This document shows positions 5,759 through 38,827 of a stretch of DNA of 40,991 nt, one piece after another (within the stretch, counting starts at the first letter, position 1; the number at the start of each line of letters is the position of its first letter). The stretch comes from Planctomycetota bacterium. GTDB lineage: Bacteria; Planctomycetota; B129-G9; JAJDCN01. The stretch is from positions 1-40,991 of the forward strand of contig JAJDCN010000232.1 in assembly GCA_029260815.1 (NCBI GenBank), given 5' to 3'. The notes beneath the pieces are model-generated. The model was not told where the DNA came from, did no database searches, and saw nothing but the letters and a program-made list of their open reading frames with translations. The position numbers and the translations under genes were made by a program.

Positions 5759-5762
5759 AGCC

Positions 5763-23627: not shown

Positions 23628-24013
23628 AGGGGTGAGTGGAGTTTGTGAATTTCGATAGGTCCATGTTGCCGAGTGGTCCCGTTGTCTACTCGAAACGCGA
23701 CATCGAGTTTTTCACGGCGTTCCGCAAGCAAACGGACCGCAAGCTCTGAGGGGATACTGACAGCCATCGCCCAACTCGAAAGCGGTGGCTTGTCGATTAT
23801 CCGGCGGTAGTTCCAATGGGTTGTCAGCCATTGGCTGTTTTCTGCCATCTCGTGAGCGATCTGGCCATAGAAGGCCTCGTCATAGTTATCCAGAGAGCCG
23901 GTCCAGAGCAGCAGGCCCAAAAAGACCGCTGCGATGAGCAAGAGAGTTGCAAGCTCGAATTGCTGTTCTTTAAAAACCAGTTGAGCAGAGACAAAGAGCG
24001 AGCGTACGCTCAT
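23624..24013 (-). CDS. N-terminal fragment of an ArnT/PMT-type (GT39/GT83, GT-C) glycosyltransferase; possible pseudogene or remnant
   Basis: LDNYDEAFYGQIAHEMAENSQWLTTHWNYRRIIDKPPLSSWAMAVSIPSELAVRL matches the first-loop DE...KPPL..W...sE.a.R motif of the family. The ORF stops at 129 aa, whereas the family is typically over 450 aa with many TM helices. Confidence 0.5.
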   Translation of the reverse strand: MSVRSLFVSAQLVFKEQQFELATLLLIAAVFLGLLLWTGSLDNYDEAFYGQIAHEMAENSQWLTTHWNYRRIIDKPPLSSWAMAVSIPSELAVRLLAERREKLDVAFRVDNGTTRQHGPIEIHKLHSPL

Positions 24014-24981
24014 CCCCTGAGTTCTAGATGAAGCGCCAGTTGGAGGATTTTGTCACAGACCTTCGGAAAAGAAATTCCGGCCGCCTGGGCCGCCTTGGGC
24101 AGCAAGGAACGCTCTGTCAAGCCCGGCAGGCTGTTCACCTCGAGAACATTGATCTTGTCGTTCGGGCCATAGATCAGGTCCACCCGGGAGTAGTGGCGAC
24201 AGCCCAGCGCCTTGTGTGCGGCCAGCGCCGTATAGCGAATCTCATCGAGCCTTTCCGGGTCGATGTCCGGCTCCATGTCGTATTCAGTTGTCGAATCTCG
24301 ATATTTTGCTTCGTAGGTAAAGAGCGCGTCGGGCGAGCGAATCTCGATCACCGGTAGTGGCTGATCGTTCAGAATCCCGACGACCACTTCGCGTCCGGTC
24401 AGGAACCGTTCGATCATGGCTCGTTCTCCGAACTTCAGCGCCTTGTTGATCGCGGGCGTCAATTCCCCGGGCATGGAGACCTTCGAAACGCCCACGCTGG
24501 ATCCCTCCGCGGCTGGCTTGACCACCAGTGGCAAACCCAGCCGCCGCTGAATCCGGCTGATATCGTTGGCTGTGGCCTCGGCGGTCACCTCGTGATAGGG
24601 CGCAGTTGGGATTCCGTTCTTAAGAAACAGGATCTTCGAGCGAAGTTTGTCCATCGCATTGGCGCTTGCCTCCGCGCTGGAACCGGTGTAGCGGATTCCC
24701 CGTTCGTCCAGCATCCGTTGAATCTGGCCATCTTCCCCGAAGGTACCGTGAAGAGCCAGGAACACCGCATCGCAGGACGTGCCGTTGAGTTGCCGTAAAT
24801 TGCTATGGGTCAGATCGATTTGCCGAACCTTGTGACCGTTCTTCTGCAGCGCCTTGTGTACCGCTTGACCCGTCTGCAATGAAATCTCGCGTTCGGCTGA
24901 AACACCACCGGCCAGGACCGCCACGGTTGCGGTTGTCGTGGCCTGTTTTGGCCCGGTTTTGCGTGACGCTTTGGTTGTCAT
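24010..24981 (-). CDS. ddl: D-alanine--D-alanine ligase
   Basis: VLAGGVSAEREISLQTG, FLALHGTFGEDGQIQ, PLVVKPAAEGSSVGV and EVNSLPGLTERSLLPKAA form the ATP-grasp Ddl signature. Confidence 0.92.
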   Translation of the reverse strand: MTTKASRKTGPKQATTTATVAVLAGGVSAEREISLQTGQAVHKALQKNGHKVRQIDLTHSNLRQLNGTSCDAVFLALHGTFGEDGQIQRMLDERGIRYTGSSAEASANAMDKLRSKILFLKNGIPTAPYHEVTAEATANDISRIQRRLGLPLVVKPAAEGSSVGVSKVSMPGELTPAINKALKFGERAMIERFLTGREVVVGILNDQPLPVIEIRSPDALFTYEAKYRDSTTEYDMEPDIDPERLDEIRYTALAAHKALGCRHYSRVDLIYGPNDKINVLEVNSLPGLTERSLLPKAAQAAGISFPKVCDKILQLALHLELRG

Positions 24982-25030: not shown

Positions 25031-25342
25031 TTATTTTAGCTGTTTAACCTCGCGCAGTGGTGTCACCGGCTTGCCGTAGCCGGAGCTGGTTTTCTCGCGG
25101 ATCGGAGCTTCGCGGTAGGCTCCGGCCTTCCCTGAGCCGGTGTCCTCCAACAATTTCTCAGCATCTTCAATGAACGTGTCGATTGTCATAAAGATGCTCA
25201 TCGCCGCCCGCCGTGTGAGAATCACCGAATCACGAGAGGAATCGCTCAGTTCCTTGAGCAGCAGGCTCGTTGCCAGCTTAACCGCGTGGAGACGACGATC
25301 CAGGAACACCGCGATCTCTTCTTGTTTCGTGTATTTGTCCAT
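25031..25342 (-). CDS. Hypothetical soluble 103-aa protein embedded between murB and ddl
   Basis: The ATG lies 12 nt after the murB stop on the same strand, and the stop lies 49 nt before the ddl start. There is no TM segment or signal peptide, and I recognise no family. Confidence 0.45.
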   Translation of the reverse strand: MDKYTKQEEIAVFLDRRLHAVKLATSLLLKELSDSSRDSVILTRRAAMSIFMTIDTFIEDAEKLLEDTGSGKAGAYREAPIREKTSSGYGKPVTPLREVKQLK

Positions 25343-25354
25343 CGAGACTTCCTT

Positions 25355-26245
25355 TCAGCTCCAGACCTTCAGTTCAAGTTCCAACGTAACACCGCAAGCC
25401 CGTGCCACTTCACTTCGGACCCGCTTAATCAGAGACAAAATGTCCTCGACGGTTGCCCCGCCTGTGTTGAGGATGAAATTCGTGTGCTTTTCTGAAACCC
25501 GCGCTGCACCGACCGATTGATTCTTCATTCCTGCAGCCTCAATTAAGCGTCCGGCGGAATCCCCCGGGGGGTTTTTGAAAACGCAGCCGGGGCTTTTTTC
25601 TCCCAGCGGCTGCGTCGCCAGCTTCTCTTGCAGAATCTGCCGCCGTCGCGCGCGCAGGGAGACCGGATCACCCGGCCGTAGCTCGAAGGTCGCCGCGGCG
25701 ACCACGTCTTCGCCCAGCGCGGCGGTTCGGTAAGCAAAGCGAAGGCTGCCCGCCAGTCGGGTTTCACACTCGCCGGTGGGGCGGATTACCGTGACCGATT
25801 CGATCGCGTGAGAGACCTCGCCATATTTCCCACCCGCGTTCATGGCCACGAATCCACCCAACGTGCCAGGGATGCCCGCCAAGCCTTCCAAGCCCGACAA
25901 ACCCCATTCGACGGCTTGAACGATCAGCGGTTGCATCTCGGCTCCCGCACCGGCAGTAATCCGGTTGCCGGACCGCTCAACGGTGTTCAGCTTCGCCAAG
26001 GAGACCACAGCGCAATTGAGGACATCCGCCGCCACCAGAAGATTGGCTCCAGATCCCAGCGAGCGGATCGCAATCCCATGGGTTCGGGCGGTACGCACTA
26101 CGTTGGCAAGTTGGTCTGGGTCCGCGGGCTCTAAAAAGTACCGAGCAGTGCCCCCCACGCCGTAGGTCGTCAAGGGGCCCAAACACTTGTCGAGCGTCAA
26201 GATCGCGGCGAAATCGGCAAACGGTTCTTTGACAATCGCTGTCAT
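25355..26245 (-). CDS. murB: UDP-N-acetylenolpyruvoylglucosamine reductase
   Basis: LTTYGVGGTARYF, SLGSGANLLV and IPGTLGGFVAMNAGG are present, and the C-terminus is GCVFKNP...SEKHTNFILN. The ATG at 26245 overlaps the murC stop as ATGA. The longer ORF-track frame (to 26578) overlaps murC and is rejected. Confidence 0.9.
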   Translation of the reverse strand: MTAIVKEPFADFAAILTLDKCLGPLTTYGVGGTARYFLEPADPDQLANVVRTARTHGIAIRSLGSGANLLVAADVLNCAVVSLAKLNTVERSGNRITAGAGAEMQPLIVQAVEWGLSGLEGLAGIPGTLGGFVAMNAGGKYGEVSHAIESVTVIRPTGECETRLAGSLRFAYRTAALGEDVVAAATFELRPGDPVSLRARRRQILQEKLATQPLGEKSPGCVFKNPPGDSAGRLIEAAGMKNQSVGAARVSEKHTNFILNTGGATVEDILSLIKRVRSEVARACGVTLELELKVWS

Positions 26246-27636
26246 TGGGTTTGAACGAACCTCCGATCTCGAGACAAATAGCTGACGGCCACATGTCCAA
26301 TATCTCCCGCCCCCATGGTGATCAGCACTTCGCCGGTGTCCAGGTGCTCCTCCAGGTGCGCGAGGATCTGGTCCAAGCTGGGCAGATAGACGGCGTGGCC
26401 GCCCCGCGCCCGGATTTGGTGCACCAAGTCCTCCGAGGAGATGTTGTTTTTCTCTTCCAGGCTGTCCCGTACGAAATAGATGTCCGGGATGAGCGTCACA
26501 TCCGCGTCCACAAGCGATTGTGCGAAATCCTTGAGTAAAAACCGTGTTCGACTGTGCTGGTGTGGCTGGAACACGCACCAGACTCGGCGGCCGGGGTACA
26601 GATAGCGGATCGCCTCCAGCGTCGTCGCGATCGCTGTCGGGTGGTGGGCGTAGTCATCGATAATAATCACGTTGTCGCGGATGCCGACTCTTTCCAGTCG
26701 CCGGTGGACGCCGGGAAACTGCTCCAAGGAGTCGCGTGTATACTCTCGCGGAATTCCCAGTGCGTCCGCCGCTGCAATGACCGCCAGGCTGTTGAGCAGA
26801 CAATGCCGCCCGGGCACCGGGAAGCTGAAGCCCCCTTCTTCCCGGCCCTTGCGAACCAAGGTGAATTCCAACCCACGCTCGTTGCGCCGAATGTTCTTGG
26901 CGTGGTAATCCATTCCCGGGCTCAGGCCGAACGTGACCACCTGGGATCGAGCCGACCCGATCGCCGTGAGTACATTGGGATCTTCCCCGTTAGCAACGAT
27001 CGTTCCTTCCGAGGGGACCTGGGAGGCGAATTGGGAGAAGGCCTGGAGGATCTCGTCCAAACCGTCGTAGTAGTCCAGGTGATCTTCTTCGATGTTGTTC
27101 AGAATCGCAACCCGCGGGTGCAGGTTGAGAAACGAGCGGCGATACTCGCAGGCCTCCGCGATGAACAGGTCGCCCTTGCCCACCCGGGAAGAGCCGCCGA
27201 TGGCGCGTACCTCACCACCGATGACAAAGCTGGGGTCCAGCCCCGCATTGACTGCCGCCACCGCCAGCATGGCGGACGTCGAAGTCTTGCCGTGGGTGCC
27301 GGCCACGGCCACCCCGGTGGTCTTGTTCATCAAGGCCCCAAGGGCTTGAGCGTATTTTCGGATCCGAAGATTGCGGCGCTTAGCGGCATAGAGTTCAGGG
27401 TTGTCCGATGAAATCGCTTCGGTTACCAGAACCAGATCGGTTTCCGGTGGGATGTTGCCTTCGCGCTGGCCGACGTGAATCGCGGCGCCCAATTTGCGCA
27501 GGCCCTCGAGAAGTTGCGAATCGCGGGCGTCGGAGCCAGAGACGTGGATACCTTGGTCGAGCAGGTTCTTTGCGATCCCGCTCATACCGATTCCACCGAT
27601 CCCGACGAAGTGAACGTGCTCTATCCCCTCAAACAC
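26242..27636 (-). CDS. murC: UDP-N-acetylmuramate--L-alanine ligase
   Basis: HFVGIGGIGMSGIA and VAVAGTHGKTSTSAM (P-loop) are present, with DDYAHHP near the C-terminus. The start is GTG. Confidence 0.92.
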   Translation of the reverse strand: MFEGIEHVHFVGIGGIGMSGIAKNLLDQGIHVSGSDARDSQLLEGLRKLGAAIHVGQREGNIPPETDLVLVTEAISSDNPELYAAKRRNLRIRKYAQALGALMNKTTGVAVAGTHGKTSTSAMLAVAAVNAGLDPSFVIGGEVRAIGGSSRVGKGDLFIAEACEYRRSFLNLHPRVAILNNIEEDHLDYYDGLDEILQAFSQFASQVPSEGTIVANGEDPNVLTAIGSARSQVVTFGLSPGMDYHAKNIRRNERGLEFTLVRKGREEGGFSFPVPGRHCLLNSLAVIAAADALGIPREYTRDSLEQFPGVHRRLERVGIRDNVIIIDDYAHHPTAIATTLEAIRYLYPGRRVWCVFQPHQHSRTRFLLKDFAQSLVDADVTLIPDIYFVRDSLEEKNNISSEDLVHQIRARGGHAVYLPSLDQILAHLEEHLDTGEVLITMGAGDIGHVAVSYLSRDRRFVQTQ

Positions 27637-27732: not shown

Positions 27733-28884
27733 TTATTCTTGCGAATTGTTGGGCGAATCGACAATTAAGCGGGCAATAGCGGTTCGCGCATCGGGGTGAC
27801 CGATTCGGTCCAAGCTATGTGTGATCGACTGGGCAACCTCCGGATTCTTTACAATCTCTTGCAGGGCCTCGGCCAGGACGCGGGCGGAGTCGCTCCCTTC
27901 TTCCACCAACATCGCAGCCCCGCACTGTTGCATATGTTTTGCGTTTTTCAATTGGTCGCCTTCGACCGAATGGGGCAGTGGAATCAAAATCGACGGCACA
28001 TTACGAGCGGTCATCTCCGCAATGGTGATCGCTCCGGCTCGGCTGACCACCACGTCCGCCGCAGCCAGCGCCAGGTCGATCTTTTCGATAAACGGCATCA
28101 CCCGCGCCTGGAGCGTCAGGGACCGGTATTGGGCCACGACAGAGTTAAAATCCGCCTCCCCTGTCTGGTGGATGATGTTCATTGCCAGGCCGTTGCTGAA
28201 AATATTCGGCATTGCTTCCGTTACGATCCGGTTGACACCGGAGGAGCCTTGGGAGCCCCCCAAGATCAACAGCGTCTTGTGATGGGGGTCCAGGTTGAAA
28301 TGGGAATAAGCATCAGTTCGACTGGCCGCCTCGATTTCACGACGTACCGGGGTGCCCAGTACCTGCACGGGTCTTGGGCGCAGAGCCGTCGCGGTGTTCG
28401 TGTGGGAGCAGACCACCGTGTGTGCGAAGCGGGCCAGCCATCGTGTGGCCCGGCCCGGGGCCAGGTTCGGCTCCAGCAGCACAATGCGTATCCCCATCAG
28501 CCGTGCCACCAGCACCGTGGGCACTGAGGCATAGGCGCCCGTGCCCACGACCACTTCAGGACGAAACTGCCGAAGAATCCCGAAGGCGTCCGCCAGTGCC
28601 CGGACAAACGCGACCGTGAACTGTGGCCAGCCCCCAAGCTTGGAGGGAAGCTTCGGGGCGTCCAGAGCCACCTGATAGAACGGATACGCCTGGAGGATGG
28701 AACGATCCAGGCTCTTGCCGGAGGTGACAAACAGGATTTCGGAGTCGGGACGTTGCGCGGCGATTTCCCCGGCCACCGCTACGGCAGGAAGAATATGCCC
28801 ACCCGAGCCGCCGCCGGCGAACAAGACGCGCTGCACCTTTGGGACGGGCTTGAAAAGGCTCTTACTCTCAGCCTTTAATTCCAC
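27733..28884 (-). CDS. murG: Lipid II synthase: UDP-GlcNAc--undecaprenyl-PP-MurNAc-pentapeptide GlcNAc transferase
   Basis: VLFAGGGSGGHILPAVAVA (G-loop) and LLILGGSQGS are present, along with VVSRAGAITIAEM. Confidence 0.9.
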   Translation of the reverse strand: MELKAESKSLFKPVPKVQRVLFAGGGSGGHILPAVAVAGEIAAQRPDSEILFVTSGKSLDRSILQAYPFYQVALDAPKLPSKLGGWPQFTVAFVRALADAFGILRQFRPEVVVGTGAYASVPTVLVARLMGIRIVLLEPNLAPGRATRWLARFAHTVVCSHTNTATALRPRPVQVLGTPVRREIEAASRTDAYSHFNLDPHHKTLLILGGSQGSSGVNRIVTEAMPNIFSNGLAMNIIHQTGEADFNSVVAQYRSLTLQARVMPFIEKIDLALAAADVVVSRAGAITIAEMTARNVPSILIPLPHSVEGDQLKNAKHMQQCGAAMLVEEGSDSARVLAEALQEIVKNPEVAQSITHSLDRIGHPDARTAIARLIVDSPNNSQE

Positions 28885-29810
28885 CGGACTCTCGATTTGA
28901 GCAACTGAGCCTTCAGCGCAGGAGCGTGGCTGTCAAAGTCACTCGCGGAATAGCCTAGGGGCGTCGGTGAAGTGGTCGAAGCCACCGGGTACCAAATCCC
29001 GCTAGTGTCTTTGGACAATTCGACCGAGGTCACGTTTGCGTTTGTCCAATGGACGACCAGCATGCGCGTGCCGGACGTGGAGAGCATTTTCCACAGGCTG
29101 CCGCTGGCTTGGATTCCCATGTCGGCAAAGGCCGTCTTGGCTACTTCCAGCCCATCGGTTCGCCACGTCTGCTGTCCCGACGCCAGCGAACGGGAAATTG
29201 TCTGCAAATCGTTCGCGGTGGGGGTGGCATAGTAGCTTTTGGTGATACTCCCGAGTCGGGTGGTCGCCACGACGCTCGATCCTGTCCAGGTAGAGGCAGG
29301 CGTCTGCGGTATGGTACTGGCCACGGTCACGGTGGTGCCGGACGTCAGGCTGGGCTCGGAGGTGCCCGTTGGAACAGATCGGCCCATCCACTCCGGAGGC
29401 AGTTTCAACACCTGTCCCGGCATCAACTTGGTTGGTTCGATTCGGTTGAGCTGCTGCAAGGCCGGCCACGTGGAGTTCCGGCCGGTATACTTCCTGGCAA
29501 TCGCCTGGTAGGTGTCGCCCGACTTGACCGTGTAGGTTGTTGCAACCACCGGTGTTGGGAGAATCTCAGGAGCCGGATCCTGGCCTCCGACCGGCGCGGT
29601 CACATCCGGTGGCAGTGGCGGGACTAACGGCATTGAGGGTTGAGCGGCCTGACGAATCCGCTGACGTTGCTCCGGTTGTTGACGCGGCGCATTTTGTTGG
29701 GCGGTTGATCCGCCTCGATTCGTTTGTGCTTCGGTCGTGTTTTCCTCGCTGCAGCCGCCGGAAAACATCACCCCGGCGACAGCCAGGGTCGCTACGAACT
29801 TCTTCATCAT
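28875..29810 (-). CDS. LysM-domain lipoprotein with an uncharacterised C-terminal domain of about 170 aa
   Basis: GGAGGGA precedes ATGATG. The lipobox is ATLAVAGVMFSGGC, followed by a Pro/Gln-rich linker. The LysM domain is YTVKSGDTYQAIARKYTGRNSTWPALQQLNRIEPTKLMPGQVLKLP. The 3' end overlaps the murG start by 10 nt. Confidence 0.7.
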   Translation of the reverse strand: MMKKFVATLAVAGVMFSGGCSEENTTEAQTNRGGSTAQQNAPRQQPEQRQRIRQAAQPSMPLVPPLPPDVTAPVGGQDPAPEILPTPVVATTYTVKSGDTYQAIARKYTGRNSTWPALQQLNRIEPTKLMPGQVLKLPPEWMGRSVPTGTSEPSLTSGTTVTVASTIPQTPASTWTGSSVVATTRLGSITKSYYATPTANDLQTISRSLASGQQTWRTDGLEVAKTAFADMGIQASGSLWKMLSTSGTRMLVVHWTNANVTSVELSKDTSGIWYPVASTTSPTPLGYSASDFDSHAPALKAQLLKSRVRWN

Positions 29811-29842
29811 GTTCCCTCCAGAAATGATTTGGATGTTTGATT

Positions 29843-30997
29843 TCATCCGATCGTTTGTGTTGTCGGTCCGTTTTTTTCGAGCGCGCGATTGGCGATGTTA
29901 ATCAAGATGCCGACCGCGCAGCATTGAAACAGGAGCGCGGAACCGCCTTTTGAAATGAACGGCAGGCTGATTCCCTTGGTGGGAACCAAGTGCGTAACTA
30001 CGGCGATGTTGGCTGCCGCTTGTAGAGCAAGCATCACGGTTATCCCGTAGGCCAGCACGGAGGCAAACGGATCGTCCCGCGTCAACTTGGCAATTTGCAA
30101 ACCCGCCAGCGTAAAAGTTGCAAATGTTACAACAACGAGTAGGGTTCCCGCAAAGCCGGTCTCCTCGCCGAGAATGGCGAAGACAAAGTCAGTGTGTTCC
30201 TCTGGGAGATACCACAGTTTTTGCATGCTGCGGCCCAGGCCTTTTCCGAAGACCTCTCCGGAGCCCAGGGCGATGATCGACTGATTGATCTGGTAGCCAC
30301 TACCTGTCGGGTCAGCCACCTCTCCATATTGGACCGCATGTAGATACACGCCCAATCGGCTGGAGATGTGCGTCCAGTTCTGCGTAGCAACACCAATGGC
30401 GATAGGTATGGCAAGCGCCACCCCAACCAAACCTGCAAAGGGGGCGAAATGATTGTATCGAGCCCCCGCGGCCACGAGAACGAGGGCGCTGGTAAACAGC
30501 AGAAACAGCGGTGTTCCCGCGTCTCGCTCGGCGACAATCAACAGGGCCAACGCACCGAGTACCAGCGTGATCGGCAAAAATCCACGCTTGAAGTCGCGCA
30601 CGATTCCAGGCTTGCGCGTGGCGAAGGCGGCGATGAAAAGAACCGCGGCGAACTTCGCCATCTCCGATGGCTGGAAACTGATCGAGCCGAATCGGAACCA
30701 GCGTTGGGCTCCGTTGACCTTGGAACCGACGCCCGGGACCAGTACCGCGCCCAGTAACACAACCGTGGCGATAAGGATCGGGACTGCGGCCTTCTTCAAG
30801 CTTCGATAGTCGATGAGCGTGAACGCCAACAGGCCGGCGACCGACAGCGTCAAATACAACAAGTGCTTTCGTGGGATATAGGTCTGATCGTCGTGGAAGT
30901 GGTGAGAGCGCACCGAACTGGCCGAATACACCATTACCAGGCCGATTGCCATCAGCAGTGCGGCGGTGATCAAGATTGTGTTGCGTGCGTTGGTCAT
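29843..30997 (-). CDS. ftsW: SEDS-family peptidoglycan glycosyltransferase FtsW
   Basis: The protein is multi-TM, with MVYSASSV, FQPSEMAKF, EEHTDFVFAILGEETGF and LPFISKGGSALL signatures. It sits in the canonical position before murG. Confidence 0.88.
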   Translation of the reverse strand: MTNARNTILITAALLMAIGLVMVYSASSVRSHHFHDDQTYIPRKHLLYLTLSVAGLLAFTLIDYRSLKKAAVPILIATVVLLGAVLVPGVGSKVNGAQRWFRFGSISFQPSEMAKFAAVLFIAAFATRKPGIVRDFKRGFLPITLVLGALALLIVAERDAGTPLFLLFTSALVLVAAGARYNHFAPFAGLVGVALAIPIAIGVATQNWTHISSRLGVYLHAVQYGEVADPTGSGYQINQSIIALGSGEVFGKGLGRSMQKLWYLPEEHTDFVFAILGEETGFAGTLLVVVTFATFTLAGLQIAKLTRDDPFASVLAYGITVMLALQAAANIAVVTHLVPTKGISLPFISKGGSALLFQCCAVGILINIANRALEKNGPTTQTIG

Positions 30998-31006: not shown

Positions 31007-31663
31007 CTAGGGCGTAATGGTCACCGGTGTGCCGACCGGGATATGATCGAAAACCTCCAGGATCTCTGCATCGGATATCGAAATACAGCCCAACGTAGAG
31101 GTTCGGTTTCCCTTGGCTCCGTGGATAAAAATTTCGCCACCAAGCTTTGTGTTCCAGGGCGGCTGGACGCGCCGGTTGATTGCCCACCGGATATGTTCGA
31201 ATTCCTCTTGCGTAATCATCGCCTCGCGCAGCCCGCGCTCAGCGTCTTCTACGTTCGGGTAGCTGATGCCCAGGGACCGGGTGTATTGGCTTTGCGGGTT
31301 TTTCACGCAGATGTAGAACGTTCCCTCCGGTGTTGCCTTGTCCCCTTCTTGTCTTTTGTCCGCGGTGTTTCCCCCTGCAATCGCTTCAATGCGCTTGACC
31401 AGCTCCTTGTCCCGGTAAATCTTGAGAATCCCCGCGCTCTTGCTGAAGGTCATGGACAACTTGCCCTGATACCAGGTACCGTCATCGATCACGACCACCT
31501 CGTCGCCTTGGGTTTGGGTCTTGTCGTCCGGCTCTATGGTGGGGACGATCTGCGTCTGGTGAGCCGAGCTATCGTTCATTGCAAGGAAGGCGAGCAGCCC
31601 GCCCGCGCTCAGCAGAAGGATCGTTGCTGCAACCAAGACCGCTCCATTCTGATTCACCCCCAT
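31007..31663 (-). CDS. Membrane-anchored L,D-transpeptidase (YkuD domain)
   Basis: The N-terminal TM is AVLVAATILLLSAGGLLAFLA. The catalytic motif is IFIHGAKGNRTSTLGCISIS (H...GC). The ATG lies 1 nt after the mraY stop, and the stop lies 9 nt before the ftsW start. Confidence 0.75.
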   Translation of the reverse strand: MGVNQNGAVLVAATILLLSAGGLLAFLAMNDSSAHQTQIVPTIEPDDKTQTQGDEVVVIDDGTWYQGKLSMTFSKSAGILKIYRDKELVKRIEAIAGGNTADKRQEGDKATPEGTFYICVKNPQSQYTRSLGISYPNVEDAERGLREAMITQEEFEHIRWAINRRVQPPWNTKLGGEIFIHGAKGNRTSTLGCISISDAEILEVFDHIPVGTPVTITP

Positions 31664-31664: not shown

Positions 31665-32780
31665 TTACCGAATCCTTAAGGAAGCGATGCTGAACAAGGC
31701 CAGGATCGCCCCGATAATCCAAAACCGTATCACCACTTGCGTTTCCGACCATCCCTTGAACTGGAAATGATGATGAATCGGAGCGCATAGAAACAACCGC
31801 TTGTGTCGTGTCTTGTAGGAACCGACCTGAAGAATGACCGACAGAGCCTCTACCACGAAGATTCCGCCGGCGATCATCAAGATGATCTCGTGTTTGGTCG
31901 CAACCGCAATAAAGCCGATGGCCCCCCCGAGCGGCAGGGCACCGGTATCGCCCATGAAGATCTTTGCCGGGTGGCAATTAAACCACAGAAATCCCAGGCA
32001 TCCACCCAGGATCGACGCGGAGAAGATCGCCAGCTCGTCTGCGCCCGCGACCGGAGGCAGATGCAGATAGTTCGCCAGTCCCTTCGGTCCCACGCTGCCG
32101 ACCGCCAGGCAGAAGCCCACGAACGTCAGAGCTACCATCGCTGAGAGTCCTGAGGCCAGTCCATCGAGTCCGTCGGTCAAGTTGACGGCGTTCGACGTGG
32201 CCCCGATCACCAGCGCAACAAATGGGATATAAAGGAGTCCCAGATCTACGGAGCCCAACTTGAACGGGAAGTAAAGCGTATACGCATCGGGCACCGCTCG
32301 ATTGTGCGAGTAGAGCAGGTAGCCCAGAAGAAGCCCGACCAGAACCTGCGGCAAGACCTTTTCCAGAGATGTCAGGCCCGGCGCGTTCTTCGACGACAGT
32401 TTGATCCAGTCGTCGTGGAAGCCCACCAGCGTCAGCAGAAGGGTAGAGAGGATCGCCATAATCACGTAATACTCGTCGATCCGGGCCCACAAAATGGTGG
32501 AGAGCAGGACCGAACCGATGATCATTATGCCGCCCATGGTCGGCGTTTGCGCCTTGTGATCGTGCAAGTGGGCCAACCGTTCCGAATCCGTCTTTCCGGT
32601 GTGCTCCGAGAAGCGGTTGCTTTGCAGCAAGCGTATCAAGCGAGGACCGATGTACAGGCAAATGAAGAAGGAGGTGATCGCCGCAAACACAGTTCGGAAC
32701 TCTACGTAGGTGAAGACGTGGAACGGATGAACTCCGAACCACTCCACATTGCTCCACGGAAATAATAACTTTGGTAGCAT
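31665..32780 (-). CDS. mraY: Phospho-N-acetylmuramoyl-pentapeptide transferase
   Basis: KAQTPTMGG, NAVNLTDGLDGLA, MGDTGALPLGG and APIHHHF motifs are present. Confidence 0.93.
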   Translation of the reverse strand: MLPKLLFPWSNVEWFGVHPFHVFTYVEFRTVFAAITSFFICLYIGPRLIRLLQSNRFSEHTGKTDSERLAHLHDHKAQTPTMGGIMIIGSVLLSTILWARIDEYYVIMAILSTLLLTLVGFHDDWIKLSSKNAPGLTSLEKVLPQVLVGLLLGYLLYSHNRAVPDAYTLYFPFKLGSVDLGLLYIPFVALVIGATSNAVNLTDGLDGLASGLSAMVALTFVGFCLAVGSVGPKGLANYLHLPPVAGADELAIFSASILGGCLGFLWFNCHPAKIFMGDTGALPLGGAIGFIAVATKHEIILMIAGGIFVVEALSVILQVGSYKTRHKRLFLCAPIHHHFQFKGWSETQVVIRFWIIGAILALFSIASLRIR

Positions 32781-32792: not shown

Positions 32793-34205
32793 TTACTCGT
32801 TTGTCATCTTGACCGATGTGTCGATTCGACTCATATCGGACGGTACACCAGCCCGCATGGCGCTGACGATCGATTCCATATGCATTCCCCGGGATCCTTT
32901 AATCAGGACGATTGCGCCGTCGGGGATAAGAGATACGTGCTTTGTGCAATCCGTGGTGTTGACGAAACAGCGGATGTTCTCCGGTTTCATCCCCTGGCGA
33001 ACCGCCTCCACCGCGATTTCGTTAGCTTGTAGACCGATGGTCCAGAGAACCTCGATCCCGGCCTGCGCGACCTGCCGCCCGACGCCCGAATGATAGAGCT
33101 CCGCCGCCCCGCCCATTTCCAGCATGTCTCCGAGGATCGCCATCTTGATCTGTCCTCCGGTCAGAGAGGCCACGCTCTTGAGAGCGGCTTCCATGCTGCC
33201 AGGGTTGGCGTTGTAGGAGTCATCGATTACCAGGGTCTCCCCCAATTCAAAGACTTCCATTCGGTGGCTCGGCGGTGTGAAGTTCAGCAGCCGCTTCGAG
33301 CAGTATTCCAGCCCGATGCCCAGCCCGGAGCAGGCCGCCACGGCTGCGAGGGTGTTGTAAACATTGTGCCGGCCCAGCCCGGGTATCTCGAACGGGACGT
33401 CGTTGATTCGGAACGTCAGCTCGTAGCCGGCTTGTCGAATGGCACTCGCTTGGAAGTGCGCCGTTGTTTCCACTGCGAAGGTTGCCGTGTGGGCCCGGGT
33501 GACGTGCAGCATGACATGCGCGTAGGGGCAGTCCAGGTTGATCACTGCCAGGCCGTTTTCACGGACCGCCGCAATTAATTTGCTCTTTTCTCGGGCGACG
33601 CTGCTTTCGCTGCCGAACCCGCCCAAGTGGGCCGAGCTGACACCCGTAACCACGCCGATATCCGGTCGAGCGATATCGGCCAGCCGTTCCATCTCGCCCA
33701 CTTGACTACAGCCAATTTCCATCACCGCCGCCCGCGTTCGGGGCGTAATGGTGAGCAAGGATTTTGGTAGGCCGATCTCGTTGTTGAAGTTGCCCTTGGA
33801 CGCTACGGTTGGCAGAGAATCTTTCAGGATGTGGTAGATCATTTCCTTGGTGGTTGTCTTGCCATTAGAACCGGTGACCGCGATGAGCGGCGGGTTGACA
33901 GCGTCTCGGACGAAGCGGGCCAGTTGGCCCAATGCCGCGCGGGTGTCGCGCACGGTCAAACAAATACAACCTTCCGGGACTTTGCTCATTGGCCGGTTGG
34001 TCAACACGGCTGGACACCCGGCCTCCGCGGCCTCGGCGATGAAGTCGTGCCCGTCGAAGTTCTCTCCACGAATCGCGATGAACAGTTCGCCCGGCTGAAG
34101 GGTTCGCGTGTCTGTATTGATCGATGTAAACGCGATTTCCGGACAATTGCCTTCCAAGGTCGCCCCGGTAATGCATACGATTTCTTCCAGTGATAGATCG
34201 ATCAT
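32793..34205 (-). CDS. murF: UDP-MurNAc-tripeptide--D-alanyl-D-alanine ligase
   Basis: IAVTGSNGKTTTKEM (P-loop), DDSYNANPGSM and LGDMLEMG are present. The gene overlaps the murE stop as ATGA. Confidence 0.92.
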   Translation of the reverse strand: MIDLSLEEIVCITGATLEGNCPEIAFTSINTDTRTLQPGELFIAIRGENFDGHDFIAEAAEAGCPAVLTNRPMSKVPEGCICLTVRDTRAALGQLARFVRDAVNPPLIAVTGSNGKTTTKEMIYHILKDSLPTVASKGNFNNEIGLPKSLLTITPRTRAAVMEIGCSQVGEMERLADIARPDIGVVTGVSSAHLGGFGSESSVAREKSKLIAAVRENGLAVINLDCPYAHVMLHVTRAHTATFAVETTAHFQASAIRQAGYELTFRINDVPFEIPGLGRHNVYNTLAAVAACSGLGIGLEYCSKRLLNFTPPSHRMEVFELGETLVIDDSYNANPGSMEAALKSVASLTGGQIKMAILGDMLEMGGAAELYHSGVGRQVAQAGIEVLWTIGLQANEIAVEAVRQGMKPENIRCFVNTTDCTKHVSLIPDGAIVLIKGSRGMHMESIVSAMRAGVPSDMSRIDTSVKMTNE

Positions 34206-35701
34206 GACATATCCTTTGGAATGGCGTTGATGGCAACGGAAGCCTTTGAGTGCTGCAACTCCTGTAGCGCCTGCGCGGCTACGATCCGGTCATCGAAGGG
34301 GATTACCCGATCAGAGAGAACCTGGCGTGCTTCGTGTCCTTTGCCGGCGATCAAAACGATATCGTCCGGTTCGGCCGCTGCGATCGCCTTGCGAATGGCT
34401 GTGTGGCGGTCCGGCTCGGTTTCGTAATGTGTCGCTTCGCCGATGCCGGTTAACACTTCATGAATAATTGCCTCGGGGTCTTCGCCCCGCGGATTGTCGG
34501 AGGTGACCCAGAAGCGATCCGACCAGCGCTCCACCGCGGCTCCCATCTTCGGACGCTTGGTCCGGTCCCGGTCGCCACCGCAGCCGAATACCGTGAGGAT
34601 CCGGTTGCGTTTGAGTTCCGAGAGGTTGGCCAGCACCGTGTTCAAGGCGTCGTCGGTATGCGCGTAGTCGACCAGGACGTGAAATGGCTGACCGCAATCG
34701 ACGCGTTCCAACCGCCCTGAAATCGTTTCCACCTCTTCCAGCCCTCTCCGGATGGCGTCGGTGTGAATGCCCATGGAAAAGGCGCAGGCCGCTGCGGCGA
34801 GAGCATTGTAGATGTTATGGACGCCGATCAGTGGCCAGGCCACAGAGAATGAACCCGCCGGCGTGCGGATCTCAAAAGTCGCCCCCTCCAGTCCGGCAGC
34901 GTCCACGTGCCCGCGAACCATCCCCTCGTGCAGCCCGTAGGTGATGACTCGGGCGCGCGTTTTTTCAATGATCTGCCGGCCGCCACGGTCATCTGCGTTG
35001 ATTGCGGCCACGGCGTTTGCCCCCAGTTGTTGAAACAAGAGTCCTTTGGCGGCCAGGTATTCTTCCAGGGTTCCGTGGTAGTCCAGATGTTCGTGGCTCA
35101 GGTTGGTGTAGATTGCCGCCTCGAAGGTGACGTCGCGGACGCGTCGTTGGGTCAGAGCATGAGAGGAAACTTCCATGACTGCATACTCTACGCCCGCCGC
35201 CCGCATCTGCTCCAAGTGATGTTGCAACTCCACCGGTCCGGGCGTCGTGTTGTCGATCGGGAGGAAGCGCCCGGCATATTCGCAGCCGACCGTCCCGATC
35301 AGGCCGGTGGCGTCTCCGGCCGCGGTCAGGATCGCGCGCAACAGATAGCTGGTGGTCGTTTTTCCGTTGGTCCCGGTCACGCCGACCACGTGCATCTTGG
35401 TGGAAGGACAGCCGTGGATGAATCCGGCCAGACGCGACAGCGCCGCGCGGGCGTCGGGAACAAGGATCATGGGAATGCTCTTGGACGTGACGGTGTGGCG
35501 CTGGGCTACGATCGCCGCGGCTCCGGCCTTGAGAGCGTCGGGCACGAATCCGGTCCCGTCCACGTCGATCCCCGGGATCGCGACAAAGACCGATCCATTG
35601 CGTACCCGGCGGGAATCGCACTCCACCGAGACAATCTCTCTTTCCCGAAAGTTTGCCGCTTTATAAGACTCCAGCGATGATAACAGCTTGCTCAGCTTCA
35701 T
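34202..35701 (-). CDS. murE: UDP-MurNAc-L-Ala-D-Glu--2,6-diaminopimelate ligase
   Basis: VGVTGTNGKTTTSYL and VDYAHTDDAL are present. The DNPR motif (TSDNPRGEDP) indicates meso-DAP specificity. Confidence 0.92.
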   Translation of the reverse strand: MKLSKLLSSLESYKAANFREREIVSVECDSRRVRNGSVFVAIPGIDVDGTGFVPDALKAGAAAIVAQRHTVTSKSIPMILVPDARAALSRLAGFIHGCPSTKMHVVGVTGTNGKTTTSYLLRAILTAAGDATGLIGTVGCEYAGRFLPIDNTTPGPVELQHHLEQMRAAGVEYAVMEVSSHALTQRRVRDVTFEAAIYTNLSHEHLDYHGTLEEYLAAKGLLFQQLGANAVAAINADDRGGRQIIEKTRARVITYGLHEGMVRGHVDAAGLEGATFEIRTPAGSFSVAWPLIGVHNIYNALAAAACAFSMGIHTDAIRRGLEEVETISGRLERVDCGQPFHVLVDYAHTDDALNTVLANLSELKRNRILTVFGCGGDRDRTKRPKMGAAVERWSDRFWVTSDNPRGEDPEAIIHEVLTGIGEATHYETEPDRHTAIRKAIAAAEPDDIVLIAGKGHEARQVLSDRVIPFDDRIVAAQALQELQHSKASVAINAIPKDMS

Positions 35702-35719: not shown

Positions 35720-37432
35720 TCATTTGTCCGGTTTTACCTGCAAGTGGATCAACGATTTCTCGATGATCTCGGAGACCGCAGGTGCGGCCACTGTGCCGCC
35801 GTAGTGACTTCCATGCGGCGTATCCACGGCCACCAAAACGCACAGCTCAGGCCGGGGAACAGGAGCGATGCCGACAAAATAGCCTACGTAATCGGTTTCC
35901 GAATAGCCTCTGCCGTTGGGCAGGGCCTTTTGCGCCGTTCCCGTCTTTCCGCCCACCGTGAAGTGTTCGGTGGCTGCCTTTTTTCCCGTTCCTTCTTCCA
36001 CCACAGCCTGCAGAATCGGCCGGATTTGCTGCACCGCCTCATAGGACAGCACCCGCCGTAGTTCCTGCGGCTCGTTTTGTTGCAAAAGATTTCCATCTGT
36101 GTCTTCGATCCGGGCAATGAGATAGGGCCGGAACAGGATCCCGTAGTTCCCCAGCGAGCAATAGGCGCTGGCCAACTGAAGCGGCGTAACGGTCATCTCC
36201 TGCCCGAAGGCGACCGACGCCTGGGAGTAGTTGTTCCAGCGCTCCATCGGAGTGATCCGCCCGCGCGCTTCGCCCCGCAGGCCCAGATCGGTGGGGCGTC
36301 CGAAGCCCAGGGAGACGACAAAGTCCCGCAACTGCTGATGGGTCAGCATCATCCCGATCCGCGCCGCGCCGACGTTGCTCGACTTGACAACAACGTCGCG
36401 TACGCTCAGCATCGCGCTACGCACATGATCGCGGATTGTTCGTCCGCCAACGCTTCCGGTGACCGAGATCATCGTATCCGGCCGGACCAATCCAAGATTG
36501 AGCGCGGCCGCGACCGTAAAGGGCTTAAACGTGGAGCCTGGATCGTAGGCGTCTGTGATCGCTCGGTTGCGCCGCTGGTGGGGTGTGGAGGCCGAAAACC
36601 GGTTCGGATCGTAGCCCGGCCGAGAGGCGATCGCCAGGATCTCACCGGTATAAGGCCGCATCACGATCGCGATGGCCCCCTCCGCCTTCCACTTCACGAA
36701 GGCCTCGTCCAGGGCCGCCTCCGTGATCGCCTGGATCTCCGGGTCGATGGTCAAGATCACATTGTGGCCATCGATCCCCGGCATTCCTTCCTCGCCAAGC
36801 GATGGGATGGGGCGACGCCGTGCATCGACGGCACTGGTCCGCTGACCGGGCGTGGTTCGGAGGAAGTTGTTGAACGCCAACTCGAGGCCCTCCAGCCCCC
36901 TGTCGTCACGATCCTTTTCGTCTTGGGTCACGAAGCCGAGGACTTGCGCCAGCATCTTACCCTGCGGGTAGCGACGTTTGTACTCGTACCGAAAATGGAG
37001 ACCGGGGACGCTCAGGCTGTGGACCGCTACTGCGTCCGACTCGCTCAAGAATCGGGCGAGCCAGACGAAGCGGTAGGGCGTTCCATTGGGTCGACGACGC
37101 ATCAGCTTGCGCTCGATGCGCGTCGGGTCGAGGCCGATCGCGGCGGACAACATGGCCGCGACACCGCTGGGATTGGCGATCCGCTCCGGGTCCGCGTACA
37201 GCGACGGGACCCGCTCGGAGGTGGCCAGCAGCGTACCGTCGCTGGCCCGGATGTCGCCGCGCTTGGGGACGTCGGGCATCTTCATCCGTTGCTGCCGGTC
37301 GGCGGCCCGGGCCGATTCCGGGCCGGCCACCACCTGGATGAAGAACAGCTTTACCGCCAGGCCCGCAAATACTAACACGATCACGATCTGCGTGACGGTG
37401 GCAGTTCTGGAGATCGAGGCTTCCCCATCCAT
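35720..37432 (-). CDS. ftsI: Class B penicillin-binding protein / peptidoglycan D,D-transpeptidase FtsI
   Basis: There is an N-terminal TM. The active-site triad of motifs is STFKP, SSN (VKSSNVG) and KTGTA. Confidence 0.9.
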   Translation of the reverse strand: MDGEASISRTATVTQIVIVLVFAGLAVKLFFIQVVAGPESARAADRQQRMKMPDVPKRGDIRASDGTLLATSERVPSLYADPERIANPSGVAAMLSAAIGLDPTRIERKLMRRRPNGTPYRFVWLARFLSESDAVAVHSLSVPGLHFRYEYKRRYPQGKMLAQVLGFVTQDEKDRDDRGLEGLELAFNNFLRTTPGQRTSAVDARRRPIPSLGEEGMPGIDGHNVILTIDPEIQAITEAALDEAFVKWKAEGAIAIVMRPYTGEILAIASRPGYDPNRFSASTPHQRRNRAITDAYDPGSTFKPFTVAAALNLGLVRPDTMISVTGSVGGRTIRDHVRSAMLSVRDVVVKSSNVGAARIGMMLTHQQLRDFVVSLGFGRPTDLGLRGEARGRITPMERWNNYSQASVAFGQEMTVTPLQLASAYCSLGNYGILFRPYLIARIEDTDGNLLQQNEPQELRRVLSYEAVQQIRPILQAVVEEGTGKKAATEHFTVGGKTGTAQKALPNGRGYSETDYVGYFVGIAPVPRPELCVLVAVDTPHGSHYGGTVAAPAVSEIIEKSLIHLQVKPDK

Positions 37433-37478: not shown

Positions 37479-38240
37479 TTAGCCGATGTCCTTGGGCAGA
37501 ATGAAGATCTCCACTCGACGGTTTTTCGCTTTTCCTGCGTCATCGCCGTTGTCGGCAACCGGCTGGAATTCACCGTAGCCAGCGGCGTAAACGATCTGCT
37601 GGTCGACACCATGCTTCGCAAGGAAGCGCGCGACGGCAGTGGATCGACCGACAGAAAGGCCGAGATTGTCGATCCAGACCTTTGCGGTCTTCCTGAGCGG
37701 AACGTTGTCAGTATGTCCATCGACACGGACTTTGGCAGCGTCGGTTTTCAGGACATTGGCCAACTGCGTCAGGGTCTGCTGGACCGGTTTTTTTAGAGCG
37801 TTGGAACCGCTGAAAAACAAAAGGTCCCCGGAAACATTGAGCCTGATCATTCCGTCGACCATCGTACCGGTGAGCCCGGTTTTGTCTTCAATCTCCTTTA
37901 GCAGCGCAGCAATCCGTTGTTCCTGTTGTGTCTTACTGCTCTCCAAGGATTTGATTTTGTCATGGGCGGCTCTTAGGCGGTTGCCCTGTCCGTTTAACGC
38001 GGCGAGTTGATTCTGGAGGTCGGCAATGCGCTGCTGCAGCGCAGCGATCTGTTTGGCGCCGGAGCCGTCCTGGTTCCGCAGGGCCTCCAGCTCTTGGAGC
38101 CTGGCGTTCTTTTCGGTATTAAGAATGTTGTAACGGTCCTGCAAATCGCTGTGCCTTGCACCGGAGACGCACCCTTGCGTCAGTACCACAGTGAAGGCAA
38201 CGACAGCGATAGCGACCACAACTCTTGAAACTCGATTCAT
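37479..38240 (-). CDS. Coiled-coil lipoprotein with a C-terminal OmpA/MotB-type peptidoglycan-binding domain
   Basis: GAGGAGAGGGG precedes the ATG at 38240. The lipobox is FTVVLTQGC. The coiled coil is LQELEALRNQ...IAALQQRIADLQNQLAAL. The OmpA_C-like part is FFSGSNALK...VDGHTDNVP...NLGLSVGRSTAVARFL...GYGEFQPVADN...NRRVEIFI. Confidence 0.8.
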   Translation of the reverse strand: MNRVSRVVVAIAVVAFTVVLTQGCVSGARHSDLQDRYNILNTEKNARLQELEALRNQDGSGAKQIAALQQRIADLQNQLAALNGQGNRLRAAHDKIKSLESSKTQQEQRIAALLKEIEDKTGLTGTMVDGMIRLNVSGDLLFFSGSNALKKPVQQTLTQLANVLKTDAAKVRVDGHTDNVPLRKTAKVWIDNLGLSVGRSTAVARFLAKHGVDQQIVYAAGYGEFQPVADNGDDAGKAKNRRVEIFILPKDIG

Positions 38241-38305
38241 GTCCCCTCTCCTCATTACGAGTGACGATTAAATGTGAAAAAACAATTCGTTTAAGTCGTT
38301 TCCAT

Positions 38306-38770
38306 CTAGTTGGACGGAATGGCAATTATGGCACCAGCACGCAGCTCGCCATTGGAGCCGATCTTGCCGGGGTTGGCATTCTTGATCGCCTGCCACTTCT
38401 TTCCGGTGCCATAGAAGCGTCGGGCCAGCGCCCATAGCGTATCGCCGCGCTGTACGGTGTACTGACGGCCTTGCGCGTTCGGCTGGGATCCGGCAACCAC
38501 GGTGGCCGACGCGGTGGTCAGCTCCGGCGGCATGGACATCGGGCTGGGAGTCAGGACCACCGGCCGCGCCTGAAGAGCGGCCAGACGGGCTTGCTCCCGC
38601 TGTTCTTTGATCTTTTGAATCTGTGCGGCCACTTGCTGGTGTTCCTGTTCCAGCAGTTCGGTCCGATGGTTCAGCTTGTCATCCTTTTCCTGGGAAACAC
38701 AACCGGCGACGCCGATGCCACCGATCAACAGGGCCGCCGCAACGGCCAACGGTTTTGCGTACGCTTTCAT
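38306..38770 (-). CDS. Coiled-coil lipoprotein with a C-terminal LysM domain
   Basis: GAGGTG lies before the ATG at 38770. The lipobox is LIGGIGVAGC. The helical segment is LLEQEHQQVAAQIQKIKEQREQARLAAL. The LysM domain is YTVQRGDTLWALARRFYGTGKKWQAIKNANPGKIGSNGELRAGAIIAIP. Confidence 0.75.
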   Translation of the reverse strand: MKAYAKPLAVAAALLIGGIGVAGCVSQEKDDKLNHRTELLEQEHQQVAAQIQKIKEQREQARLAALQARPVVLTPSPMSMPPELTTASATVVAGSQPNAQGRQYTVQRGDTLWALARRFYGTGKKWQAIKNANPGKIGSNGELRAGAIIAIPSN

Positions 38771-38827
38771 AAACACCTCACAAAAATGGGATAAATCGAT
38801 TCTCAATTTCTTTACAAACGTCACGAT

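Follow-up and report, generated by a model that had tools for sequence, protein, structure and literature searches.

A YkuD-family gene between mraY and ftsW within the dcw gene cluster of a deep, uncultured Planctomycetota-like clade

The window analysed here, a whole metagenomic contig of 40,991 bp from a Planctomycetota bacterium (JAJDCN010000232.1), contains a cluster of cell-division and wall genes (dcw) in which a gene of the YkuD family (31007..31663, minus strand; 218 aa) lies between mraY and ftsW. A YkuD gene occupies the same position in at least seven related lineages, in every member of the window's clade that was examined. This conserved placement is new, and a literature search found no YkuD gene fixed between mraY and ftsW; YkuD-fold hydrolases, DpaA-like proteins in bacteria without Lpp (PMC8263019) and the fragmented dcw clusters of Planctomycetota, which have neither ftsZ nor murD, are already known. 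From sequence and predicted structure we propose, with moderate confidence, that the gene encodes a periplasm-facing, YkuD-fold editor of meso-diaminopimelate (mDAP) stem peptides, of the L,D-carboxypeptidase type, which would be co-expressed with mraY and ftsW and would represent a lineage-specific gain of the dcw cluster at a junction that lacked murD.

The mraY-YkuD-ftsW arrangement

A preliminary description of this DNA had reported a 218-aa membrane-anchored open reading frame (ORF) with a YkuD-type H...GC motif and had labelled it an L,D-transpeptidase. The motif that it quoted, IFIHGAKGNRTSTLGCISIS, is present in the translation of 31007-31663, and the Pfam YkuD family (PF03734), which it had named as a check, matches the protein significantly (E=2.8e-19; 70.6 bits, gathering cut-off 23.4) over profile positions 7-146 of 146. 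More than 1,200 homologues, the best with E=2e-45, show that the ORF is a genuine gene rather than a chance frame. Its boundaries, read from the sequence, are as first described: 1 nt separates the mraY stop (TAA, 31665-31667) from the YkuD ATG (31661-31663), and 9 nt separate the YkuD stop (TAG, 31007-31009) from the ftsW ATG (30995-30997). An AAGGA Shine-Dalgarno sequence lies within the 3' end of mraY (31673..31677, minus strand), 9 nt upstream of the YkuD ATG, and this layout suggests that translation of the gene is coupled to that of mraY.

An AlphaFold2 model, built from a 71-sequence alignment, has a mean predicted local distance difference test (pLDDT) score of 85.5 and divides the protein into three parts, all encoded on the minus strand. 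Residues 6-28 (31580..31648), which include the hydrophobic stretch AVLVAATILLLSAGGLLAFLAM, form a single predicted membrane helix, and this would act as an uncleaved signal anchor with the remainder of the protein facing the periplasm. Residues 29-67 (31463..31579) make up a low-complexity, flexible linker (pLDDT 49-64) that is disordered, without secondary structure and without conservation in the alignments. The catalytic YkuD domain, identified from the model and its fold matches, comprises residues 68-218 (31010..31462) and is compact, with pLDDT above 90.

In base composition the gene (GC content 0.566; 0.712 at third codon positions, GC3) is similar to its neighbours. Its codon usage correlates with that of the rest of the cluster at r=0.76, within the range of the neighbouring genes, and its tetranucleotide distance to the contig falls on the 51st percentile among equal-sized windows. 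No repeats flank the gene or lie at its junctions. The composition of the gene is fully ameliorated to that of the host, and recent horizontal transfer was rejected on composition, codon usage, tetranucleotides and the absence of repeats.

The position of the gene is retained in distant relatives. Among the 5.8 billion proteins of the collection searched, the best homologue of the window MraY (P0122) is 54% identical to it, and on the contigs that encode this homologue (L084 and L085) mraY is followed by a gene for an 858-aa protein and then, with a 4-nt overlap, by ftsW. The C-terminal 150 residues of the 858-aa protein are a YkuD domain that matches the window protein (phmmer E=3.5e-46). A metagenome scan with two aligned YkuD domains returned 80 loci, 78 of them without any dcw gene. 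The other two were L099 (=L172), where a gene for an 837-aa YkuD protein precedes ftsW-murG-murC-murB-ddl, and L117, where mraY is followed by genes for an 868-aa and a 196-aa YkuD protein, a long and a short form in tandem, and then by ftsW-murG-murC-murB. With the 837-aa protein as query, seven full-length relatives (47-100% identity) came up, and the order ftsI-murE-murF-mraY-[YkuD]-ftsW-murG-murC was present in all four whose loci were looked up (L172, L173/L174, L175 and L176/L177). Four lineages (L084, L172, L173 and L176) show a 4-nt overlap between the YkuD stop and the start of ftsW. Altogether, independent assemblies of at least eight samples from related organisms gave the order mraY-YkuD-ftsW; it was absent from the 80 dcw loci of the Planctomycetota-Verrucomicrobiota-Chlamydiota (PVC) superphylum returned by a GTDB scan and from the 78 other YkuD loci. 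The comparison of mraY-ftsW gene content in related genomes that the preliminary description had suggested finds the YkuD gene kept in the window's clade, and a junction without murD in Planctomycetota-type loci.

Neighbour-joining trees of the host proteins group the loci that carry the gene. In a tree from MurG, MurC and FtsW (34 taxa, 1,216 columns) the window joined L099 and L117 in 187 of 200 bootstraps; in a tree from MurE, MurF and MraY (81 taxa, 1,282 columns) it joined all other carriers in 121 of 200, the carriers alone being recovered in 200 of 200. The latter tree, a single one and with no bootstrap for the wider grouping, placed the carrier clade with Brocadia/Scalindua loci and L088/L089. 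The core Mur and Fts proteins of the carrier relatives are only 42-46% identical to those of the window, and the clade is deep for that reason. The window lineage itself is very isolated: in concatenated Mur and Fts proteins nothing found exceeds 46% identity, and its best MraY match among GTDB representatives is 49% identical.

Position and host phylogeny, not the gene tree of the YkuD domains, make a single ancestral insertion the parsimonious reading; the gene tree does not demonstrate this, and a second, independent insertion at the same mraY|ftsW junction is conceivable. One recent reconstruction describes the dcw cluster since the last bacterial common ancestor as having undergone loss and delocalisation, with "likely no gene gain" (PMC8871954), a view to which a YkuD gene that was gained and then retained at exactly the same junction throughout a deep clade would be a modest exception.

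The murD-less junction

In the canonical dcw cluster (mraZ-mraW-ftsL-ftsI-murE-murF-mraY-murD-ftsW-murG-murC-ddl-ftsQAZ), murD lies between mraY and ftsW; the window has no murD in that slot and carries the YkuD gene there instead. The preliminary description had noted that no ORF of the window resembles MurD and had concluded that murD was relocated and an L,D-transpeptidase wired in at its place. The first observation holds. When all six-frame ORFs of at least 60 aa were searched by phmmer with murC, murE and murF, only those three Mur ligases were found, and a Pfam scan of 37 window ORFs gave no fourth Mur-ligase architecture; a murD hidden in the window was rejected on these two scans. The murD gene of this organism is very probably encoded elsewhere in its genome, outside this contig.

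The YkuD gene did not, however, displace murD. Using the window MraY to scan GTDB species representatives, we obtained 80 loci, the closest at 48-49% identity, whose ORFs were labelled with the window proteins. In all 29 loci of Planctomycetota type ftsW comes directly after mraY, the ORFs being spaced by -87 to +4 nt from stop to stop. Of these 29 loci, 28 bear the title Brocadia, Brocadiaceae, Scalindua, Scalinduaceae, Planctomycetes, Planctomycetota or Phycisphaerales. The remaining one, L017 (CAXMPV010000041.1), is binned as 'Thermodesulfobacteriota' and has a Scalindua-like dcw cluster with adjacent mraY and ftsW and a frame-shifted ftsW; this contig is probably mis-binned. A Mur-ligase ORF, murD, stands between mraY and ftsW in 37 loci from Verrucomicrobiota, Lentisphaerota and Thermoanaerobaculia. 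Among metagenomic relatives found through MraY homologues, mraY adjoins ftsW in four more (L086, L088/L089, L090/L091), and the Omnitrophota-like loci L083 and L087 keep murD in the order mraY-murD-ftsW.

Published gene inventories give the same picture. In Kuenenia stuttgartiensis MurE, MurF, MraY, MurG, MurC and Ddl are encoded by kuste2378, 2379, 2380, 2383, 2385 and 2386, and MurD by kuste3480, about 1,100 locus tags from mraY (PMC4432595); in Planctopirus limnophila murD is Plim_1571, and murE and murF are Plim_0681 and Plim_0680 (PMC12283558). Since mraY abuts ftsW in 29 of 29 loci and the murD of Kuenenia is distant, the empty slot is ancestral to the window's group, and the relocation is old, phylum-level and unrelated to the YkuD gene. 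A murD outside its textbook position is thus normal for the phylum and no sign of an altered pathway.

The remainder of the cluster also conforms to the phylum. The order mraW-ftsL-ftsI-murE-murF-mraY-ftsW-murG-murC-(murB)-ddl is common to the window and to 'Ca. Kuenenia stuttgartiensis' (kuste2376-2386), Scalindua, Brocadia and metagenome-assembled genomes of Phycisphaerales. Like the window, the Planctomycetota clusters have no murD between mraY and ftsW and no terminal ftsQAZ, and in several lineages they have interspersed LysM genes. Unlike them, the window and its clade carry the YkuD gene exactly at the mraY|ftsW junction, and in the window ftsL is separated from ftsI by two LysM genes and an OmpA-like gene.

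Subfamily, proposed activity and alternative explanations

The protein belongs to the DpaA/Csd6-like branch of the YkuD family. His181 (codon at 31121-31123), Gly182, Gly192, Cys193 (31085-31087) and Lys103 (31355-31357; all codons on the minus strand) are invariant in the 71 of 71 aligned homologues. The residue two positions after the cysteine (Cys+2) is Ser195 in the window (31079-31081) and, among 196 relatives, Ala in 187, Ser in 6, Gly in 3 and Arg in none; Arg at this position marks L,D-transpeptidases, and Ala marks hydrolases of the Csd6/Pgp2/YafK type (PMC8263019; PMC10653827; PMC8938487). The loop G-D-K-x-x-E-G-D-x-x-T-P-E-G and a Y-P-N motif are common to the family, DpaA and Csd6, and the loop is missing from B. 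subtilis YkuD. Lys103, within the loop, aligns with Lys107 of Csd6 and Lys83 of DpaA, and a conserved Lys in this long L1 loop is specific to DpaA and L,D-carboxypeptidases (PMC10653827). Two residues before the catalytic histidine (His-2) the window has Phe179, and all five dcw-embedded sequences have Phe; the position is aromatic as in Csd6, where Trp158 contributes to the D-Ala pocket. In DpaA it is Met133, which closes that pocket, and some relatives in the family have Met. The other aromatic pocket residue of Csd6, Tyr133, aligns with Thr128, and Tyr127 aligns with Csd6 Tyr132.

Structure and profile comparisons point in the same direction. A Foldseek search of the PDB gave 74 matches at E<=1e-3, and all 50 matches listed are enzymes of the YkuD beta-sandwich fold. 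Csd6 ranks first (4XZZ; E=1.4e-8, root mean square deviation 2.4 A), Pgp2 third and fourth, and Bd1075 fifth; B. subtilis YkuD and E. coli DpaA are also among the top eight, and mycobacterial transpeptidases follow. When PDB sequences were searched with a family profile, it matched DpaA (8IKR) at 6e-10, Csd6 at 4.7e-8, B. subtilis YkuD at 1.7e-7, Bd1075 at 4.8e-7 and Pgp2 at 1e-6, versus 8e-5 to 0.02 for classical L,D-transpeptidases, and Csd6 was the best phmmer match of the window protein itself among solved structures. The sole NCBIfam match, LdtF_DpaA_YafK (NF040599), reached 26.2 bits against an equivalog cut-off of 365 and covered residues 94-145 only. As judged from sequence and modelled fold, the window protein belongs to the YkuD superfamily and is not a DpaA equivalog; its fold and signature residues bring it nearest to the hydrolytic branch. 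To our knowledge, the characterised members of that branch (DpaA, Csd6, Pgp2, Bd1075) are all hydrolases, with L,D-carboxypeptidase or amidase activity.

Csd6 (H. pylori, 4XZZ/4Y4V), Pgp2 (C. jejuni, 6XJ6) and Bd1075 (B. bacteriovorus, 7O21) are YkuD-fold L,D-carboxypeptidases, classified as MEROPS C82.A01 (PMC8263019). They share with the window protein the GDK...EGD..TPEG loop with its Lys, the YPN motif, a small residue other than Arg at Cys+2 and an aromatic one at His-2, and they are periplasmic and act on mDAP-type peptidoglycan, as the window enzyme would. Identity to the window protein is, however, only 21-23%, and the three enzymes possess an NTF2-like C-terminal domain (PMC8938487); the window protein has neither this domain nor one for dimerisation and is predicted to be membrane-anchored instead. 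The three are determinants of helical or curved cell shape, and neither PMC10653827 nor PMC8938487 places their genes in a dcw cluster.

A possible course of action can be outlined. The N-terminal helix would tether the enzyme to the inner membrane, and the linker of about 40 residues would be long enough for the domain to reach the wall; given the operon junctions, the enzyme would be made together with the lipid-I synthase MraY and the septal polymerase FtsW. The murE of the cluster (34202..35701, minus strand) is of the meso-diaminopimelate-adding type (NF001126, 550.7 bits, cut-off 373), and stem peptides should therefore hold the L,D bond from mDAP to D-Ala, the target of YkuD enzymes; in the stems of nascent peptidoglycan, this bond following mDAP is the most likely substrate. 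Cys193 would attack the mDAP carbonyl of tetrapeptide stems in the nascent strands made by FtsW and FtsI, and water would resolve the acyl-enzyme to leave tripeptides. Such trimming would restrict which stems serve as donors for cross-linking at the division site and, as tripeptides can serve only as acceptors, would tune cross-linking and later cleavage there. Csd6, Pgp2 and Bd1075 offer an analogy in that they shape cells by local trimming (PMC8938487). The tripeptide M3 is the dominant monomer in the peptidoglycan of Kuenenia (PMC4432595), which indicates strong mDAP-D-Ala cleavage in this related anammox member of the phylum and would fit the proposed trimming. In evolutionary terms the dcw cluster of this deep, uncultured clade may have acquired the gene as a lineage-specific addition, at a junction already without murD in the ancestor of the phylum. 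Co-translation with MraY and FtsW and a role specific to division are suggested by gene order. The earlier idea that the enzyme is integral to septal wall synthesis gains support from the gene order found in every clade member examined; the transpeptidase label attached to it is the less likely chemistry. Members of the Planctomycetota divide without FtsZ, and it is not understood how they build or split a septum (PMC12283558, PMC12673574). In such bacteria an enzyme that edits the wall and is linked to ftsW offers a concrete candidate for a lineage-specific division accessory.

Several features of the protein and its distribution weigh against the carboxypeptidase assignment or against its generality. 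The Arg-at-Cys+2 rule is a correlate, so the choice between hydrolase and transferase chemistry stays inferential; LdtMt2 has Asn at Cys+2 yet makes 3-3 cross-links, and the rule is not absolute. Thr128 replaces Tyr133 in the D-Ala pocket of Csd6, where 51 of 71 relatives have Tyr, and the window protein ends with its catalytic domain at residue 218, without the NTF2-like domain of Csd6, Pgp2 and Bd1075. A family-specific insertion of two helices (about 30 residues, 138-163), not present in DpaA or Csd6, lies between the YPN motif and the catalytic His, and the shape of the active site may therefore differ. The nearest homologues of the protein are only 45-55% identical to it, the exact protein was found on one contig only in the collection of 5.8 billion proteins, and so was the arrangement mraY-[short YkuD]-ftsW. 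Finally, in a neighbour-joining tree of 171 YkuD domains the four domains of L084, L099 and L117 group in 170 of 200 bootstraps, and the window domain, which is about 50% identical to nearly all family members, joins them in 0 of 200.

These points bear on two other kinds of chemistry, each of which we regard as rather unlikely. The enzyme could be a genuine L,D-transpeptidase making 3-3 (mDAP-mDAP) cross-links in septal peptidoglycan beside FtsW and FtsI, as the preliminary description had it. It has the same fold, Cys/His dyad and PF03734 domain as the cross-linking or lipoprotein-attaching enzymes (E. coli LdtA-E, E. faecium Ldtfm 1ZAT, M. tuberculosis LdtMt1/2, B. subtilis YkuD 1Y7M); B. 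subtilis YkuD and 4LPQ are among its top structural and profile matches, and co-expression with a septal synthase would suit a cross-linker. L,D-transpeptidases often show carboxypeptidase activity too, as described for LdtD (PMC8263019). The Arg at Cys+2 that is conserved in transpeptidating enzymes (GCIRM in B. subtilis YkuD) is, however, missing here: the window has Ser195, and 187 of 196 relatives have Ala. Profile and fold rank DpaA, Csd6, Pgp2 and Bd1075 above LdtMt, Ldtfm and YcbB-type enzymes, and the long L1 loop with its Lys, absent from B. subtilis YkuD, is the one marked as specific to DpaA and L,D-carboxypeptidases (PMC10653827). In Kuenenia only 4-3 dimers (D43, D44) have been reported (PMC4432595). 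A match to YkuD labelled "L,D-transpeptidase" does not by itself imply 3-3 cross-links, a caution against annotation by domain name. The other possibility, also held with low confidence, is an amidase like DpaA, or a transferase working in reverse, that edits mDAP links to proteins of the outer membrane or envelope, for instance freeing tethered proteins so that the outer membrane follows the septum. DpaA (YafK/LdtF; E. coli, 8IKR) detaches Braun's lipoprotein and provides both the best profile match in the PDB and the sole NCBIfam match. It shares Lys83 and, at family level, Ala at Cys+2 (Ala145), and the Met of some relatives at His-2 recalls its Met133; JGI labels many 50%-identical homologues 'YafK', and three LysM genes and one OmpA-like gene lie in the window's cluster. 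Bacteria that lack Lpp commonly have DpaA-like proteins, whose function there is unknown and which may act on other peptidoglycan-attached proteins (PMC8263019). Against this, the NCBIfam match is partial and far below its cut-off, the window has Phe179 and Ser195 in place of Met133 and Ala145, and Phe at His-2 is shared by all dcw-embedded relatives. The His-Cys gap is 11 residues rather than the 7 of DpaA, the genomic context differs, and the top structural match is Csd6. No peptidoglycan-linked protein is identifiable in the window, and we know of no Lpp-type substrate in Planctomycetota.

That the gene is a passenger, a general periplasmic YkuD enzyme which settled at a permissive operon junction, perhaps independently in the window and in the clade with long forms, and has no role in division, seems improbable to us. 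The failure of the window domain to group with the other dcw-embedded domains speaks for this reading, as does its roughly equal distance (about 50%) to homologues, probably of Acidobacteriota, encoded beside rpmB, and the architectures do differ (218 aa versus about 850 aa with HEAT repeats). Yet the same junction is occupied in all eight distinct lineages examined, at 42-46% core identity, which implies long retention; selection for co-expression is indicated by the ftsW overlap of 4 nt in relatives and by the short spacers in the window; the arrangement occurs in 0 of 78 other YkuD loci and 0 of 80 PVC-superphylum dcw loci; and the base composition is that of the host. A chimeric join at 31.0-31.7 kb, which the preliminary description had raised as a way in which the arrangement might be artefactual, is very improbable. 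The occurrence of the exact protein on one contig only would allow for it, but the 1-nt and 9-nt boundaries and the Shine-Dalgarno sequence are in place, GC, GC3, codon usage and tetranucleotides are uniform with no repeats at the junctions, and assemblies of at least eight samples of relatives gave the same order independently.

Apart from the dcw cluster, the closest stand-alone homologues of the YkuD protein (P0002 and P0007; L001:9462-10797 and L002:10001-11037) are encoded in head-to-tail-inverted orientation beside rpmB (ribosomal protein L28), with no dcw cluster. These loci probably belong to Acidobacteriota, and the pairing of the YkuD homologue with rpmB may be a conserved context of its own.

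Long forms, a candidate RNA leader and the remaining genes

The window carries the short form only. In the relatives the YkuD protein is usually a long form of 837-874 aa (about 850), consisting of a signal peptide, some 650 residues that include HEAT repeats, and the C-terminal YkuD domain; genes of this kind lie at L172:4699-7212, L173:6135-8654, L175:1901-4525, L176:5653-8226, L084:1583-4159 and L117:442-3048, the last followed by the gene for the 196-aa short form (L117:3045-3635). The N-terminal part of about 650 aa matched only HEAT_2 and, weakly, an FG-GAP-like family, and it had no sequence match in the PDB; an AlphaFold2 model of it from a 7-sequence alignment had a mean pLDDT of 57, too low for use.

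The spacer between mraY and the long YkuD gene measures 220-475 nt and holds an element of about 200 nt in 10 of 10 long-form loci (L172:4405-4698, L173:5919-6134, L175:1682-1900, L176:5433-5652, L117:227-441 and L084:1356-1570; also L099, L174, L177 and L085). This element is nearly invariant across lineages whose flanking proteins are 47-66% identical, with an invariant core of GGAAACACCATCTCCATTTATCTCCTTTTTGGGCAGGGG...GGGCCCCTGTCTT. It had no Rfam match at E<=1, and an nhmmer profile made from it found only those ten loci, the window and about 165 other loci having none. RNAalifold predicted 61 pairs in 8 helices, and the element has a 3' hairpin and a long stem that covaries and whose tip is variable. 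In eleven pairs both sides change, compared with 4.3±1.5 in shuffles (0 of 500 reaching that number) and at most 5 in slid controls, and invariant G-U pairs indicate that the element is transcribed on the gene strand. From these alignments it looks like a candidate for a new cis-regulatory structured RNA leader of the YkuD-ftsW unit. In the window, where 1 nt separates mraY from the YkuD gene, the leader element is absent.

A bolder and, in our judgement, doubtful reading goes further. The YkuD enzyme might be a fixed partner of FtsW and FtsI, stoichiometrically co-expressed with them in a deep clade without FtsZ, that is, a new division accessory whose L,D activity, either stem trimming or some unconventional transfer, the cell would need in order to build or split its septum, the YkuD-ftsW unit standing in most members under the structured RNA leader of about 200 nt.

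The other genes of the window's dcw cluster, all on the minus strand, were assigned mainly by profile matches. The cluster begins with mraW/rsmH (39901..40797; Pfam Methyltransf_5, E=2.8e-106), directly followed by a gene for an FtsL-like small bitopic protein (39570..39899), in which a membrane helix precedes a GYEL...coiled coil. The FtsL-like assignment has no hidden Markov model support; the ORF resembles small ORFs after mraW in L086, L088 and L090, and in view of it the adjoining LysM ORF should start near 39556, not 39649. Two LysM genes follow (38828 to ~39556 and 38306..38824; Pfam LysM, E=6.3e-15 and 3.3e-10, respectively), and then a gene for an OmpA-family peptidoglycan-binding protein with a coiled-coil N-terminal half (37479..38255; Pfam OmpA, E=6e-16). 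The gene for the class B penicillin-binding protein FtsI (35720..37432; Pfam Transpeptidase, E=3.3e-69, with PBP_dimer) precedes murE, murF (32793..34205; TIGR01143, 408.6 bits) and mraY (31665..32780; TIGR00445, 351.6 bits).

Beyond the YkuD gene lie ftsW, encoding a glycosyltransferase of the shape, elongation, division and sporulation (SEDS) family (29843..30997; TIGR02614, 344.8 bits, cut-off 337.5), a third LysM gene (28875..29846; Pfam LysM, E=1.2e-12), murG (27733..28884; TIGR01133, 262.5 bits) and murC (26242..27636; TIGR01082, 456 bits). A LysM gene between ftsW and murG is also found in Phycisphaerales L058 and Planctomycetota L090; elsewhere in PVC-superphylum loci a LysM gene recurs within the cluster, after murG in L019, L082 and L086 and, in several loci from Verrucomicrobiota, after murD. 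The listed murB ORF (25355..26578; NF010480, 278.5 bits over residues 126-405) is over-extended: it overlaps murC by about 340 nt, its MurB domain begins at residue ~126, and the true start probably lies much later than listed. The gap between murB and ddl (24010..24981; NF002378, 342.5 bits) holds a 103-aa ORF without a family match (25031-25342).

The canonical cluster continues after ddl with ftsQ-ftsA-ftsZ. None of the three follows ddl in the window, where a 129-aa ORF without a significant family and an endonuclease V gene (together 22947-24013, minus strand) are found instead, an ending consistent with the FtsZ-less pattern of Planctomycetota. Rfam and tRNA scans of the window gave no matches. 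Elsewhere on the contig, on the plus strand, are a class IV aminotransferase gene of the D-amino-acid/branched-chain type (1201-2166) and, at 4608-8590, genes for an extracytoplasmic function (ECF) sigma factor, a 596-aa ORF without a family and a MucB/RseB-like protein, which together look like an envelope-stress module.

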